NCBI GenBank assembly: GCA_025786725.1
Contig: JAHLTZ010000007.1
Span: 62,001 to 126,000 of the forward strand
Reading direction: 5' to 3'
Length of the DNA: 64,000 bases
Source: Syncephalis fuscata S228
Taxonomy: Eukaryota > Fungi > Zoopagomycota
Numbering within the stretch: the first letter of the stretch is position 1; the number at the start of each line of letters is the position of its first letter. This document shows, piece by piece, positions 1-27,724 of this stretch. The position numbers and the translations under genes were made by a program. The notes below the pieces were generated by a model. That model did no database searches, had not been told where the DNA came from, and saw only the letters and a list, made by a program, of their open reading frames with translations.

Positions 1-42
1 AACCACGAGAGCAATGAGAGACTTGGGATTGGAAATTATCAT
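1..42 (-). CDS. Possible 5' end of a secreted-protein gene, truncated by the window edge
   Basis: GCC-ATG at 42 reads MIISNPKSLIALVV..., resembling the start of a signal peptide. Only 14 codons are visible. Confidence 0.3.
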   Translation of the reverse strand, partial: MIISNPKSLIALVV

Positions 43-1538
43 GGCAATTTTTAATCGTTTAACAAGGATAGCAAGTTATATATTTTATGTAAAAATGGAA
101 TTTGTAAAATGCCTCTAGAGATAGCAGTATAAGCGAAGTGTGTATAGGAAATACACGGCAACAGATGGTCAAACTATGGACATTTTATAGCAAATTTGAA
201 AAACTGCAGCTGATTAATTATCCAGCATAGAAGATAATGCGGATGTGCCACATGTAAAAATAACTGAATTCAAAACGGCTGCAACATCGACTGCAGCTCA
301 AAAAGGCAATCTACATAATGATAGAAAAAAAGAAATGAGCTGAGACTGCTAGCACATCAATCGTAGACCAAAAAGGTAAATTTGTGTACGATTATGTATA
401 GATGTACCAGACCTGGAACTACTACAAGTAAATATAGGTTTCAACTCCACATGGTTTGATTGTCAAGCGATTTGCATATAGCTTTTAGAAACATACATTC
501 CGGTTTAAAAAAATAGAAAACAAGCATTCAAAACAATGATAGTTATTGTGGAATCCCATGTTCAATGGTTATAGAAATACCACAATTATGTACGTATGTT
601 TTGAACAACTATTGCTTACAGCTTCATTTAGATATAGCCTTTATTGCCGTTGTATGTAGATTGTGATGGCTCTCGACGCATATTGAACATATTCACGGCT
701 GAGATAATGTTTACAGCAAGGTACTATTTACTAATGTAATATTTTTGAATAGCTATTTTACGAGTGATTGTATCAACTATAGCATTATTAATGCATTGCC
801 ATGTCCGCAGTTATAGTCTAGCAGATTATAAATCAATAAATTATATAAGTAATCGCATATTGCAATTATTTTTATAAAATTATATACATGACTATTGCCA
901 TATCATCACTGAGTTATAATCATAGTATTTCATTTGATATCAGTAAATTCGTAATGTGAAATTTAAAAAAAGGAATTTAGAGTGCTGGCCCAAGCCAATT
1001 ATTTAGTATTAATCGCAAATAAAACTAGCCATTATCAATTCAGGCGCACAATATCCACAGTAAAATAATGTTTAGCTACAATAAAAAGATTAACTACGAT
1101 ACTTTGATCAGCAAATGTCTACTAATTTCATATAGTCAATTAACTTCAATAATATTTATTATTTGTTTTCGTCTATATCTTTTTATCTTTCACGCGTTAT
1201 CTTCTATTTAGTATTATTTTATCACCATTCTTTAATTGTAATATGTAGATAAGGTATAAATAAAAATCTAATAACTTAGTTACATATGACTAAAATAGAA
1301 ATTTGTGTTTATTAATACAAATTTGCATAGTTGAGTGGGCATAACTATGTGCAGATTTGATAATATAATAAATCTACTGGTTGAAAGTTGAATAAACCGG
1401 GGTATTGGCTGGAACTTGATATACGTACAAGACTAAAAGACAAATATTGAATAACCTTGAGTTTTTTGAATATATACCTAAACATGGTAAACTAAATGCT
1501 CAATTACTCTGGCAGCTTTAATGTCTTGGAAGCATAGA

Positions 1539-4413
1539 TCATTCTAATATATAATTAAATACAATATTTTGCACAAAATTAGTGTATAAGCAATTATATA
1601 TAATGCCACTTACTGCCTATTAGTATCAAGTTGTTTATACGCACAGTACATAGTATATGATTAGCGTATATTTAGTTGCTACGTTATGCCACTTACAGTC
1701 TATTAATATTAGATTGTTAATACGCACAATTCGCAGTATTTGATTAGCGTACAGTCAATTAATATACAGCATCACTTACTTCCTATTGGTATCAATTTGT
1801 TGTTAGATATAATATATAGTATGTATTATTAGTGAGTAATCAACTAATACAAAATAACACTTACCGCCTGTTAATATTGAATAGTTAATATAAATGGTAC
1901 ATAAAACACAATTAGTAATTAGTCAATTAATGCAAAATGTAATTTACCGCCTATTAATATGATATTGTTGATACGCGTAGCACACGGTGTGTAATTAGTG
2001 CATAATCAATTAATATAAACTATTACTTACATTCTATCAGCGTCAGGCCATTGGTATACATATGGTATATAAAGTGTAATGAGTGCATATCCTACTAGTA
2101 TACAATATCACTTACTTCCTATTAATATTAAAATATTAAATATGTATAGCTAATTAATATATGTTATCACTTACCAACTATTATAGCAAGTTGTTTGTAA
2201 TATAATACATAGTATATAATTAATGTATAGTTAATTGATATACAATAACACTTACCACCTATTACATTAGATTTTCAATACGCATATAATACATTATATA
2301 GTTGGTACATAATGAAACAGTATAAAAATACTTACAAACTATTAATATTGAGTTGTCAGATATGTGCATTGCATTGCATGCAATTAGTGTATGAACTGTT
2401 GATATACAATGGCACTTACTGCCTATTGATATTAAATTATTTATGCCCACAGTATACAATATACGATTAGTGCCCACTCAATTTATTTGTAATAACACTT
2501 ACCAACTATTAATATTGAGTTGTCAAATACGCGCATTATATAGCATGCAATTAGTGTATGTTTAGCTAATATATAGCACTGCTTACAAACTATTAATATT
2601 ATGTTATTAAAGGCAATTGTATTTGATTAGCGCATAGTTAAAGCGTATAAAATAGCACTCACCGCCTATAAATATTAAATTTTTGGCAAAAGCATTGTAT
2701 AAAATTTAATTAGTATAGAACTGATCAATATACAATGGCACCTACAATCTATTATATTAGATTTTGATACACCCATATAGTATATAATTAGTTTGTGCAT
2801 AATCAATACATAGTTCCACTTACACCCTATGGATGTTGAGTTGTTGGCAAAATTAGTAAACAAAGTATAGTTAGTACAAAGCTAGCTAGCTTTAAATGTC
2901 ACTTACAGGCTATTATATTAAATTTTAAATAAATAAAATACAGTTAGTACATAGCTAATTAGTATGCAGCCTCACTTACGTCCTATTAATATTATTTTGT
3001 TGATAGATATAGCAGGCAACATGCAGTTAGTGTTTAGTTGATTATTATGAAATATTACTTACCAACTATTAACATTATAATATCGATATTCACAGTACAT
3101 AGCATTTAATTAGTGCATAGACAATTAGTATACAATTTCACTTACCGGCTATTAGTATCGATTTGTTGATGCACATAGTACATAGCATGCAATTAGTAAT
3201 TAGTTAGTTAATATACAATTTCACTTACGGGCTAATAGTATTAAGTTATTGATACAGATGGCACATAGTATACATTTAGTGTGTAATCAATCAATGCACA
3301 ATGTCAATTACCTCCTATTAATATTGATTTTTGGTACAAAAAGTACATTGCTTAACTCATGATTAGGTAGTGTAAAATTCCACTTACTAACTATTAATAT
3401 TAAGTTATTAATATATGGGATGCGTAAGATTTGGCTAGTTTATAACTAATTGAGCTAAACTATTACTCACGAGCTATTAATATTAAGTTGACAAGTACAG
3501 TGAGTAGATTTTAAGCAATTATAAACAAGCTAATATGCAACTTCACTTACGACCTATTATTATTATTACGTTTTATATATATAGTAAACGACATGCAATT
3601 AGTGAGCTGTCAGTTAATATAAAATAATACTTACCGGCTATTAGTATTGGTTTGTTGATACACATAGTACATATCATGCAATTAATATATGATCAATTAA
3701 TACACAATATCACTTACGAGCTATTAATGTTAATTTGCCATATAAAAATGATAAATTAAATTGCTAATTAGCATACAATGCCACTTACTTTCTATCCATG
3801 TTAATTTAAGAAATAACATTAATGAGCAACTAAATTGTTAATTAACATACAACACCACTTACTCACTATTAATGTTAATTTGACAAATAAAACAATAATC
3901 AATTAAAATTTTAATTAACATAAGATATCACTTACACCCTATTTGCATCAATTTAAGAAATAACACTAGCGATCAATTGAATTGTTGATCAACATATAAT
4001 ACCACTTACATCCTAGTAAAGTTAATCCAGTGTATTATTATTATAAACATAGTATTTTATCCACTAGTTTATAGCAAACTTACTTTTGTCCAATGATGTT
4101 GCTTGAGCTATTTTACATTAACAAATAATGCCTAATTAATCTACAAATAGCTATTTATAACCAAACCTACCGGCTGTTTACATGTGTTTATCATGTTTAT
4201 TACGTAGATGGCAGTTTGCTGTAAGTATCAAAATAATGATTCATGGTAATGGCTTACCCTCTAATACTGCCATTAGCCAAACATAATCCTATTGCATATT
4301 TATTGTAATTTTGACATACCACGACGAATTATAGATGGTTTAGCATCCGCTATAGTTATATTGGCTACAAAAGCCACAAAGATAGTAAAGACGACGACAA
4401 TAGAAAACTTCAT
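1539..4413 (-). CDS. Secreted Cys-rich prepropeptide (73 aa) encoded by 36 coding exons, 33 of them 3 nt long
   Basis: Exon 1 is 4413-4320 (94 nt, MKFSIVVVFTIFVAFVANITIADAKPSIIRR+G). It is followed by 3-nt exons at 4260-4258 and 4173-4171, a 24-nt exon at 4107-4084, 31 consecutive 3-nt exons from 4012-4010 to 1616-1614, and a last exon from 1543 with TGA at 1541-1539. Every exon is flanked by YAG and GT(A/G) sites, introns are 56-84 nt, and the joined CDS is 222 nt with no internal stop. Confidence 0.9.
1544..4012. repeat. Degenerate tandem array of ~70-85-bp units, each one intron plus one 3-nt exon
   Basis: The + strand motif CACTTAC-NNN-CTATTAATATT recurs 31 times with a modal spacing of 83 bp. 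Unit interiors share AATTAGT and TATACAAT motifs. Confidence 0.95.
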
Positions 4414-5792
4414 GGTGATTTTACTTTGATGAAAAACAAGCAAAGCTAGTACTAGTGTATATTTAGTATAAATTGGGTAGTAGTTAATGCTTAGCAAAAT
4501 TGGAGTGTAGTGATAATATCACATAGTATTACTTGTATTTTGTGAGCTATTTAAGTCTTTGATTATAATGAGATAAGTTCAATATGGATTGTATGGAATA
4601 TGTCATTAAGACGCAATGTGAGCCAATAATACACGTCTACACAATGTTTTGAAATATGTGTATATTTATAAATTAATGGCGTGTTAGTATACAGACTAAC
4701 TCTTTGTCTTAACTTGTTCTGCACTTAGACAATCAATAAGACAATACCAACTACACAATACATATGTGATATAAATAAACAAGCCAATCTGCATTGTGCT
4801 TTGCACAGTACGACAATGCCACAACAAAGGTCGGATGGGTTTTATAGGAACAATGACGACAGTGTTACTGGGTTCTGTTCTCAATTTTTTCAAAAAAAAC
4901 TCAACAGTAAATATTTGCATACAATTTAAACAAAGAGCGCTAGATCGCAGCGAATCTAAAACATTGTAACTGTTTACAAATTTATACTATTATATATAAT
5001 TTATCTTTAACCTATTGAATTATAAAAATATTTGGATTATTTCACGTACAAATCAAATTTGATGCTATGGCTGTTACTATAAAATAAATATTTATTAAAT
5101 TTATAAATGTATTACATTTGAGCACACCGTTGCACATATCGTGCCATTTCCGCCGTCTTAAACAATATATCTTCAAAATTATCTAAAGTTTGTTTCACGG
5201 TAAGCGTTATTTGTAGTGTGATATACACGATATTTTAACAATAAAGCAATTTGCACAATCACGAGTGTCAGTGATTGTTTATACGTGAAACAGCCTATAT
5301 TTATCCAATTGCAGACAACATAATTTGCAGATACTAGGTTACAAACACTGTATAGTTTCAAACAAATACTAACAGTTTGAGTACATAATAATAGTGAACC
5401 ATATATAGAACAGTGATCATACAGGGCCTGGCTAATTTTCAACGCTTCTATAAAGTGATTATGACAACAAAGGAACAACAAGCAATAGAAAAGAATAAAG
5501 AATTGTGGAATTCAATCTGCAGTCACATATCCAATATAATAGAAAAGTAGACTGAAGGAATATAGCATTGAGTGTGCAATCCATATTGGATCGAATCTTT
5601 AGCAATAGTCATCAAAAACTATAAAATTCTAAAAGGTAACACGAGTCGATTGGCCTGTGCCCATCATTCCTCTATTAATCGAGACATCGGATGTTACCGC
5701 TAATGCCTAAAAAGATGGATTGTGTTTTATAGCTGGACTAGCCTTGTCCACATCTTTTTTACCTTTAACACAGCGAGTTTTTTACTGTTTCA

Positions 5793-7112
5793 ATGAACGC
5801 GCGTCTGCACTGTCCTGTTCACGGTTTCCACACTATTCTATGCGACGCAGATGGACAACGCCGTGTAGCTGCATCTCCGCCCAGAGCAGTGCCCTATCCC
5901 GTTCTCATTCCTGATGCGTCACCGCGACGTGCATCATCCCATGTTCAGGCCAATGACGAACCATTCTCTTCGTCCTATTCACCTTCTCGTTCAAGGTACA
6001 AAGGACAACTTATGGCGGGTATTGGCCGTGCAACATCACTATCATTTCATAGTAGTGGTATGAGTAGCGAGGACCGCGTCCAAAAGGCTATACAGTATGC
6101 AGTTGATAACGGCGAAAACACGGTCGATTTGAGGTAACTAGTCCTTATAATATACTATATGTGGTTTATTGACCAGCAATATCTATACCATCAACGCATA
6201 ACAATGACAGTGGTTCGTTTTCTTTACAAGATAATGATCGTATTCGCGTGTTGCCATCGGATATTGGCGAATTACGTCATCTGACAGTGTTGCCGCCGAT
6301 GCATTGCGAATCAGACCACAAATCATCAAATGGATTACAGTTATTTTTAGGCTTTAATCTACTTAAAGATCTACCTATTGAATTATATGATCTTCGCAAT
6401 TTAACGGTGCTTGGATTGCGTAGGTCAAGCATGATTTGGCTGTTAATTGTTATTAATTGTATGTATTTATTTAGAAAATAACCAATTGGCAGAACTTTCG
6501 TTTCGTATTCGACAATTGACTAAACTAGAACGTTTGAATCTAGGCGGAAATCAATTGGTGAGTTACAGCCTATTAATGTAATAATATCATGGTCCAATAT
6601 TAAGCGTTAAATAATAGGAAACACTGCCAGGAGAACTATTATGGCTACCCAGTTTACGTAGTCTTACCGTACTCCCCAATCCACTACGCTCTTATCCCGC
6701 ACTCAATAAGCGACAGCAAGAATTACAGGTACATTGGCCATCATGGCCCTGTCTTCTTCCAGCGTGGATTGTGCAGCTAAACGTCCAATGGGTATGCTTA
6801 CGCTGGGAACCGCTACCAACTTTAACGGAACTATGTGCGCGTCAAGCGCTTATTTATCCCGATGATTTAAACGCTATACGGCACTGTATGCCAGGACGTA
6901 TTCGAGATATGCTCGATGAGGGAATGCATCGACGCTGTATTGCCTGTGGTCTATTTTTTCTACGTGCTGGTGTCAAGATGATACTTTGGCTTGATTATCT
7001 CGGTGCTCGTGAATTGCCGTTTCTTTTCCGCTTCTGTTCTGTGGCATGCTTGGAGAAACCAGGTGAATTACAAACTCGTCTAGAACGAGACTTTTCCCGT
7101 CAAATTACAGCA

Positions 7113-7143
<31 letters not shown>

Positions 7144-7238
7144 CATCATCAGTATCTAATAATGGTTATAATCGTCATAACAATAATGAGCCACATCATC
7201 ATCATCATAATCATCATCATGATTCAATGGAGCTTTAA
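5793..7238 (+). CDS. Leucine-rich repeat protein with BC-box-like motif and C-terminal Cys cluster (LRRC58-like)
   Basis: LRR motifs (LFLGFNLLKDLPIELYDLRNLTVLGL, LNLGGNQL), then LPTLTELCAR and CIAC...FCSVAC. Spliced; start codon uncertain. Confidence 0.75.
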
Positions 7239-26534: not shown

Positions 26535-27724
26535 TTAGTTTTCGAGCACTAGACTGATACCAACTTTGTGGGCACTCTCGTTCAAACGAGTGGTGTCGAA
26601 GCTGCCACCGAGTGATACCTTAACACCGGCACGAAGGCGCTGCGTATAGCCAAGACCGAGACGGCCACCGTTATCAATCTTCGCCTTAACGAAAGCATCC
26701 TTATCCAAAAAGTATTTGGAACCAAGTTCAAGAGCTACTGGAGCATTCTTTGTCTTGGAGTCCCAGGTAGCCTTGGCACCGACTTCAACATCTGGATTGA
26801 CGCGATGGAAGAACGAGGCGGAGTAGACGGTCAAACCGCTAGTGCTACAATAGCCAATGACATATATGCATTATTAGTTTAGCGTAAATGGTGATCAATA
26901 ATCAACTTACGCATGAAGAGCCACTGCGTATTGAGGTGCAGAATAGCCAACAGCCGAGCTGTAACGCGTAACATTGCCATTAAGCACATCGTAGCTAACA
27001 TCGGCACCGAATAAAAATCCCTCGTGTCTATTATATTATAGTTAGCATTCATATTCCATCTACTATCCCTATTAACGACTTGTACTTACCCAAATACAAT
27101 ATCGCCAGTAAAGCTAGGACCCTTGAATAGATCGACAGTACCACGGGTGAACACACCTGGTTGCTTATAGTTAATGCCAACCTTGGCTGTCTTTTGACTA
27201 ATACGTAGCAATATAAGTAAAGTATAGACAACAACAAACCAAATAAATTACTTACCCAACAGCCGGCAACAATGAAGCATTAATATCCAACTTCAATCCC
27301 TTGGCTACTTTATTCTCCAATTCTACTTGGGCACTTAGAACGTTCTTGGTGTTCCAGGTATTGGTCACCGTCAAGCCTGTAAAGTATAGTATGGTATATT
27401 CGTTTATTGTCCCCAATAACTTGTTCTACTGCCTAATACGTACCGTTCTTATAGTCGGAGTATTTGGCCTTAAGCTCGCCATTAATAACTCCCGACTTGC
27501 TTTCTTGCGCGCCATTGACAGTGAAGCTCTATAGTTGACGCGTAGTATGGCATAGGATGGACGTTGATTAAAACCCACTTGTTTATCGCGCTCTATTTTC
27601 CACTTACCACGCCATTAGGTGTCTTGGTCGTCACTTCAAGCTTGACCGTGCCAACTGGGTAGTCGCGACCCAAAAGATCACCCACTGACTTGCCAATATC
27701 TCCGTATTTAACCGTGGTAGCCAT
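26535..27724 (-). CDS. POR1: Mitochondrial porin / VDAC
   Basis: MATTVKYGDIGKSVGDLLGRDYP N-terminus and KAKIDNGGRLGLGYTQRLRAGVKVSLG...HKVGISLVLEN C-terminus. Confidence 0.96.

Follow-up and report, generated by a model that had tools for sequence, protein, structure and literature searches.

The minus strand of the window, by which we refer to the whole stretch of 64,000 nucleotides of DNA from Syncephalis fuscata analysed in this study, harbors a small gene that includes a run of 31 consecutive exons of three nucleotides each. The structure of this gene is real and extreme. Judged from its sequence, we consider it probable that the small exons are mostly all included and that the locus gives rise to one main, likely secreted, precursor of 73 residues, which would be cut, likely at a Lys-Arg site, to a cationic peptide with four cysteines. 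The array had originally been proposed to constitute a combinatorial splicing library of peptide variants, with constitutive splicing and a modularity acting only over evolutionary time as alternative. Our sequence tests lean towards this alternative of a single main isoform, since stop codons are not avoided at skip junctions, since the order of exons appears constrained, since the cysteine pattern is broken by 15 of the 31 single skips and since the splice sites are of a kind found in a housekeeping gene.

Results

Organization of the micro-exon gene

Parsing of the coordinates has defined a gene model on the minus strand that comprises 36 exons and 35 introns and whose joined frame encodes 73 residues. 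Exon 1 (4320..4413, 94 nt) holds the start codon, a hydrophobic signal-peptide-like segment and an Arg-Arg pair and ends in phase 1. It is followed by two pro-region exons of 3 nt (exon 2 at 4258..4260 and exon 3 at 4171..4173), both located outside the region covered by the original prediction, and by exon 4 (4084..4107, 24 nt), which contributes the remainder of the pro-region through the Lys of the Lys-Arg site, all three being of phase 1-1. The array of 31 consecutive 3-nt exons, which would encode the predicted mature peptide, extends over 1614..4012 on the same strand, with the 5' ends of its first eleven exons at 4012, 3938, 3865, 3791, 3720, 3637, 3553, 3473, 3390, 3314 and 3231, those of the following eleven at 3148, 3065, 2982, 2909, 2826, 2748, 2665, 2589, 2505, 2422 and 2338 and those of the last nine at 2258, 2177, 2118, 2033, 1950, 1867, 1782, 1699 and 1616. 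The coding start of the last exon (1539..1543, minus strand) provides the two bases that finish the final Lys codon, followed by the stop. All 35 introns are of the GT-AG type, 56-84 nt long and located in phase 1, with those between which the 31 array exons are placed measuring 56-82 nt. The coding sequence amounts to 222 bases, 123 of which are carried by 33 exons of 3 nt and the single 24-nt exon, all of phase 1-1, and the 31 array exons contain 21 distinct triplets. The claim that the locus contains 31 three-base exons, all of phase 1-1, is thus borne out by the coordinates, given the upstream frame.

Upon full inclusion, phase 1 is open and phases 0 and 2 contain one stop each, and retention would introduce an in-frame stop in case of 30 of the 35 introns. 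On the minus strand, an acceptor followed by three nucleotides and a donor motif is found 46 times, compared to 5-21 occurrences for each of the other 23 combinations of strand and spacing, and on the basis of these motif counts the array is not a product of chance. Outside of positions 1500-4420, the window contains no second micro-exon array, and short exons flanked by strong sites are limited to scattered candidates of 1-12 nt. A set of intron-split open reading frames on the plus strand (5769-7238) adjoins the array gene and, inspected by eye, resembles leucine-rich repeats.

Features of the predicted precursor and peptide

Fungal small secreted peptides processed by Kex2 start with a signal peptide, which is followed by a short pro-region ending in Lys-Arg and by a small product. 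The layout of the predicted precursor corresponds to this type, with a signal-peptide-like start, a pro-region and a dibasic site preceding a small product, from which we infer that it would likely be cleaved at Lys-Arg. Its N-terminus, encoded by exon 1, reaches a hydropathy peak of 3.2 at residue 5 in an 11-residue window, and hydropathy and layout together suggest that the precursor likely carries a signal peptide and is secreted. Dibasic sites are located at residues 30-31 (Arg-Arg) and 41-42 (Lys-Arg), the latter coinciding with the start of the array, such that the predicted product of 31 residues begins at its first exon. With a molecular weight of 3.3 kDa and a pI of 9.2, this predicted mature peptide is cationic; its first half is rich in Pro and Gly and its second half contains four cysteines in a C-x4-C-x3-C-x3-C spacing. 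Crustacean antimicrobial peptides of the arasin type combine a Pro-rich segment with four cysteines, and the likeness of the predicted peptide to these and to Kex2-processed peptides is one of layout and composition only.

Homologues of exon 1 were found neither among proteins of 23-74 residues nor among eight candidates of 75-2000 residues (none at E≤10) nor among 1.84 billion representatives, searches for which a short signal-peptide query is insensitive, and exon 1 did not match any Pfam family. In a tblastn search of the window and 124 metagenome loci, the spliced peptide retrieved exon 1 itself only, with the best score outside the gene at an E-value of 1.9.

Splice sites and kinship of the introns

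The exons of the array are preceded by a TAG acceptor in 30 cases and by CAG in one, and each of the 31 is followed by GT. Both AG and GT are intact in all 31 units and exactly three bases apart, and the donor bases at positions +3 to +6 are retained in 29-30 of them. As reference for splice sites in the same DNA we have used a mitochondrial porin gene on the minus strand (26538-27724), which contains five introns of 58-79 nt. Its exon at 26538-26825 matches a protein of S. fuscata with 100% identity along 96 residues, which marks the window as fungal DNA, the next best match, from Thamnocephalis, being 92% identical. The donor GTAAGT is present in 26 of the 35 introns of the array gene and in four of the five porin introns, whose ends were set by eye from tblastn alignments. 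The splice sites of the array gene thus resemble those of a housekeeping gene.

Introns 5-8 (3721..4009, minus strand), with lengths of 68-71 nt, form a tighter subfamily of 71% mutual identity, and introns 9-35 (1544..3717, minus strand) belong to a single homologous family, in which 13 members are exactly 80 nt long. These 13 introns share a common ancestor, since their ungapped identity amounts to 60% compared to 31% in shuffled sequences. We have relied on ungapped measures and discarded gapped pairwise identities, for which shuffled controls were as high (0.62 against 0.64). The kinship does not extend to the triplets, as the three exon columns show pairwise identities of 0.25-0.31 (0.28 overall, chance 0.26) compared to a mean of 0.58 in 68 intron columns. 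A profile of the introns matched the array alone in a search of the window and the 124 metagenome loci.

Within the 27 introns 9-35, the sequence from position 38 to the acceptor does not contain a single AG, although 36.3 would be expected from composition and 7.2 from column shuffles (none of 2000 as low), whereas the frequency between positions 8 and 37 is normal (24 AG compared to 28.9 expected). In light of this AG-free zone, the introns look maintained. The zone covers about 40 nt and starts at an internal CTAAY motif (conserved at positions 33-37), which is found in 24 of the 35 introns and whose four core columns rank third in conservation among 65 four-column windows. The second A of this motif most often occupies position 36, about 44 nt ahead of the acceptor. 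An AG-free zone would be left by a distal branch point combined with selection of the first AG downstream. We regard the internal CTAAY as a candidate for such a distal branch point and not more, since GA is also somewhat depleted after the motif in introns 9-35 (12 compared to 18.5 expected, with the depletion being strongest for AG) and since 19 of the 35 introns contain a proximal branch-like motif 8-10 nt from their end. Hairpins as a guide for splicing were ruled out, as the introns are not more stable than shuffled sequences (mean z of 0.19, with one of 35 below -2) and lack a consensus fold, and a search of window positions 1-7000 did not retrieve a structured RNA from Rfam.

Consequences of exon skipping

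The arithmetic of skipping contained in the original prediction was reproduced upon recalculation. Twenty-nine of the 31 single skips leave the frame open, with TAA arising in the remaining two if either the micro-exon at 3863..3865 or the final one at 1614..1616 (both minus strand) is omitted, and skipping of the first array exon still leaves Lys-Arg intact. Together, the open skips would result in 29 distinct products, with 14 clean deletions and 15 new residues. These properties do not support the proposed combinatorial library, as they reflect arithmetic plus chance. Symmetry is uninformative in this respect, since it follows from the length of 3 nt for every such exon, whose phase is inherited from the first intron. 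The number of open skips is equally uninformative, because shuffling the order of exons while keeping the full frame open leads to the same level (a mean of 2.3 single-skip stops compared to the two observed, P(≤2)=0.59). If all skip junctions are considered, stops are found in 37 of 496 compared to 39.0 in exon-order shuffles. Synonymous recoding of the same peptide leads to a mean of 1.9 single-skip stops and to a mean of 24.8 and a minimum of 15 stops over all junctions, with the real codons performing, if anything, worse than the recoded ones (P(≤obs)=0.95). As its skip-junction stops exceed the mean of the recodings, the gene has left its freedom to make skips safe unused.

The four cysteines and their C-x4-C-x3-C-x3-C spacing are retained in 16 of the 31 single skips, whereas in the remaining 15 a cysteine is lost, the spacing altered or the product truncated. 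When the order of exons is shuffled, 4.6% of the arrangements are open (P=0.046, a modest test) and 1.1% are both open and contain at least four cysteines, the latter criterion having been chosen after inspection of the peptide. This rarity of open exon orders favors selection on full inclusion.

The product spectrum was simulated with independent inclusion of each exon at 99, 98, 95 and 90%, which results in 73, 54, 21 and 3.7% full-length products and in 86, 74, 47 and 21% products that are free of stops and contain the cysteine pattern. At 98% inclusion, 20,000 draws contain 859 distinct products. Since small errors in skipping already yield a real mixture, the boundary between noise and library is a quantitative one, and because only 54% of the products remain full-length if 2% of exons are skipped, a single main isoform requires an inclusion of about 98% or better per exon. 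A eukaryote-wide survey associates exon skipping with splice sites that are weak, with exons that are short and with long introns on either side, and describes it as low in fungi (PMC6142364).

Codon-sized exon arrays in metagenome and prokaryote DNA

In the part of the metagenome data that was scanned, 125 stretches matched a three-unit pattern, 124 of which were taken as loci (L001-L124) and 120 retained after removal of four overlapping duplicates (L029, L060, L065 and L083). The about 3000 matching stretches estimated in total should not be taken as a count of arrays, as the pattern also matches repeats with a fixed triplet. With thresholds of at least 10 units, at least five distinct triplets and a spacing of at least 55 nt, variable arrays of 3-nt exons proved common and were identified in 52 of the 120 loci (for example L010, L024, L031, L049, L063 and L080), with a maximum of 44 consecutive units. 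Their 975 triplets include four stops compared to 60.8 expected, whereas phase-1 joins contain 116 (127 in shuffled sequences) and phase-2 joins 26 (24.5 in shuffled sequences). Based on this depletion, the metagenome arrays apparently consist of whole sense codons in phase 0. A Pfam scan of 67 of 70 flanking open reading frames from 28 loci has revealed NACHT-type domains in four (L014, L031, L033 and L063), in L031 next to ankyrin repeats, and weak matches to GTPase or Roc families in four of the 28 loci. In L043 (9334-11087), open reading frames for a retroelement protease and a reverse transcriptase are located about 2.4 kb downstream of the micro-exon array.

The metagenome arrays share with the array of S. 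fuscata the tandem arrangement of homologous short introns between variable triplets. They differ in their apparent phase 0, the NACHT-type neighbors found in four of 28 loci, the absence of the S. fuscata intron family and a smaller set of triplets, with the 8.8 distinct triplets per 10 in S. fuscata exceeding the values of all 52 arrays (median 6.7, maximum 8.5).

Prokaryote genomes served as control, where 116 stretches matched the pattern and where 35 of 38 long chains contain fewer than five distinct triplets. These fixed-triplet chains mostly correspond to one cyanobacterial repeat (L131, L132, L163, L195 and others, and also the metagenome locus L012), which resembles a CRISPR repeat. 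It holds an exact mimic of AG-NNN-GTAAG with a fixed triplet and is thus a source of false positives in scans for micro-exons. The three variable arrays found in prokaryote genome bins (L174, L185 and L237) have a GC content of 16-18%, 29-38 three-base exons and introns of about 30 nt and are mostly open in phase 0 with cysteine-containing translations; they are probably mis-binned eukaryotic contigs.

Discussion

Relation to known systems

Arrays of codon-sized exons are already known, and what appears new is a predicted secreted-peptide gene that is built in this way and in phase 1. The closest precedent is found in the NACHT-ankyrin genes of truffles, for which tens of 3-bp exons and alternative splicing were reported (Iotti et al., 2012, PMID 22289772, as related in excerpts of PMC4986451, PMC10197012, PMC13449251 and PMC9815663). 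As far as these excerpts describe the truffle (Tuber nank-type) NLRs, the S. fuscata gene, with its 31 consecutive 3-nt exons, shares with them the fungal origin, the tens of consecutive codon-sized exons and the potential for residue-by-residue variation. The proteins are otherwise distinct, since the truffle NLRs are intracellular, whereas the gene of S. fuscata encodes a predicted precursor of 73 residues with a signal-peptide-like start and a Lys-Arg site, and since in the latter, unlike in the truffle genes, the array would account for the whole mature product. The S. fuscata array lies in phase 1. Neither a NACHT domain nor ankyrin repeats are found in the S. fuscata gene, as shown by its 73 residues, the lack of a Pfam match in exon 1 and of a long open reading frame adjoining the array. 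Whereas alternative splicing was reported for the truffle genes, the gene described here is known from DNA sequence. Isolated exons of 3 nt were described in Coprinopsis, with 27 cases in 26 genes in the part of that work available (bioRxiv 10.1101/2024.05.10.593147).

A second system of related layout are the micro-exon genes (MEGs) of schistosomes, which according to the accessible parts of two accounts encode secreted proteins with small symmetric exons and verified splice isoforms, with 10-20 exons mostly of 15 bp (3-81), introns of 0.1-5 kb and an apparent restriction to flatworms (PMC4350168; bioRxiv 10.1101/2023.06.21.545858). To the extent of these descriptions, both share a coding region consisting mostly of very small symmetric exons, and the gene of S. 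fuscata may in addition resemble the MEGs in its putative signal peptide and in secretion by a parasite. In contrast to the long introns and flatworm origin of MEGs, the gene of S. fuscata contains 33 exons of 3 nt and introns of 56-84 nt and resides in a fungus of the Zoopagales. A secreted peptide constructed from 3-nt exons was not found in reports of the open-licence literature. A CRISPR array or plain satellite was ruled out as identity of the S. fuscata array, whose variable triplets are each bounded by an invariant AG and an invariant GT and whose remainder is a diverged homologous intron.

Main isoform, library or decay

The precedents in truffle NACHT-ankyrin genes and schistosome MEGs, as far as described in the cited excerpts, lend weight to the view that appreciable skipping causes one locus to secrete many single-residue peptide variants, which would be of most use in the Pro/Gly-rich first half, as skips there do not disturb the cysteine pattern. 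In our judgment this is rather unlikely. In its favor, every skip keeps the frame, the predominantly open skips would offer both deletions and substitutions, the cysteine pattern would survive 16 of them, modest skipping would suffice to generate hundreds of products, and the secreted peptide of a parasite would be a plausible target of diversification. However, stops are not avoided at skip junctions, and skips in phase 1 can create stops where the metagenome arrays, as apparent whole sense codons, would make any skip safe. Moreover, at 90% inclusion only about a fifth of the products would be stop-free with an intact cysteine pattern, and the donors are of consensus type and the introns short. 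The predominance of one isoform is in turn opposed by the extensive alternative splicing reported for comparable truffle arrays and by the association of short exons themselves with skipping, as both are presented in the accessible parts of the respective sources. We nevertheless favor the formation of one main product.

Tandem Repeats Finder assigns periods of 74-83 nt to the array, three protein searches did not retrieve a homologue of exon 1 and the interiors of the introns are only about 58-60% identical, which could also be expected if the locus were a silent pseudogene or a tandem repeat undergoing decay, where the peptide reading would be accidental or its product no longer made. We assign a very low probability to this view, which is difficult to reconcile with 31 AG/GT pairs that have remained intact at an exact three-base spacing despite diverged interiors, with the AG-free zone in introns 9-35 and with a frame that is open from a hydrophobic N-terminus via Lys-Arg to a stop just past the array. 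Additionally, the pattern matches in prokaryotes are mostly fixed-triplet repeats, whereas 21 distinct triplets are found here. A different origin would be offered by an intron-less peptide gene that existed first and into which an intron was copied or inserted at every codon, or whose introns were homogenized by gene conversion, with constitutive splicing and no role in diversification. It would account for a likeness of triplets that is at chance level and independent of intron similarity and for the star-like relationships of the introns, but appears still more improbable, since 31 exact 3-nt spacings in a single phase would be hard to obtain by independent insertions, and the intron family is absent elsewhere in the window and in the 124 metagenome loci. 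Mobile introner-like elements form a stable hairpin, which is not found in the introns of this gene. Conversely, growth by copying of intron and triplet as a unit is not established, because the similarity of introns predicts neither the similarity of triplets (Mantel p of 0.32 and 0.73), and thus no co-descent of triplet and intron was detected, nor the distance along the array, with which it does not fall (rho of 0.015). Should each triplet have been copied along with its intron, divergence has since been faster in the triplets than at the intron sites, as would be expected of a repeated codon that was reshaped into a specific peptide.

For the preferred case of one main peptide, we propose that the array would have originated inside a phase-1 intron and grown as a unit of intron and triplet was copied in tandem, each copy lengthening the peptide by one residue, and that the triplets would have diverged afterwards under selection on the peptide, such that modularity would have acted over evolutionary time. 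Each short intron would be recognized on its own, likely with a branch point at a distance of about 36 nt from the donor and 44 nt from the acceptor, and in this distal position the branch-site complex would be kept away from the next donor, which follows three bases past the acceptor. Shorter variants may arise in minor amounts by occasional skipping, and the peptide may act outside of the cell on a host fungus or on competing microbes.

Implications

With 35 introns in such a short coding sequence, the gene poses an extreme test for a spliceosome that encounters 31 consecutive 3-nt exons. It would either have to include each of them with an efficiency of about 98% or better or generate a mixture of products, a question that bears on the purpose of codon-sized exon arrays in general. 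The layout carries the design of the truffle NLRs into a predicted secreted-peptide gene of an early-diverging fungus, with a phase that differs from the arrays sampled here. As genes composed of micro-exons are invisible to searches for open reading frames and homology, small secreted peptides built in this manner may be absent from annotations. The genus Syncephalis is named among mycoparasites in the portion of a study available (PMC6850671). That such a mycoparasite would secrete a swarm of single-residue variants of a cysteine-containing peptide by stochastic skipping of codon-sized exons in phase 1 is, judged from the properties of the gene, unlikely; if true, splicing would provide a peptide library directed against hosts or competitors, in which residues are deleted or swapped and changes tolerated mainly in the Pro/Gly-rich half. 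The predicted peptide itself is a candidate for a molecule that this little-studied parasite directs against its host or against microbes.
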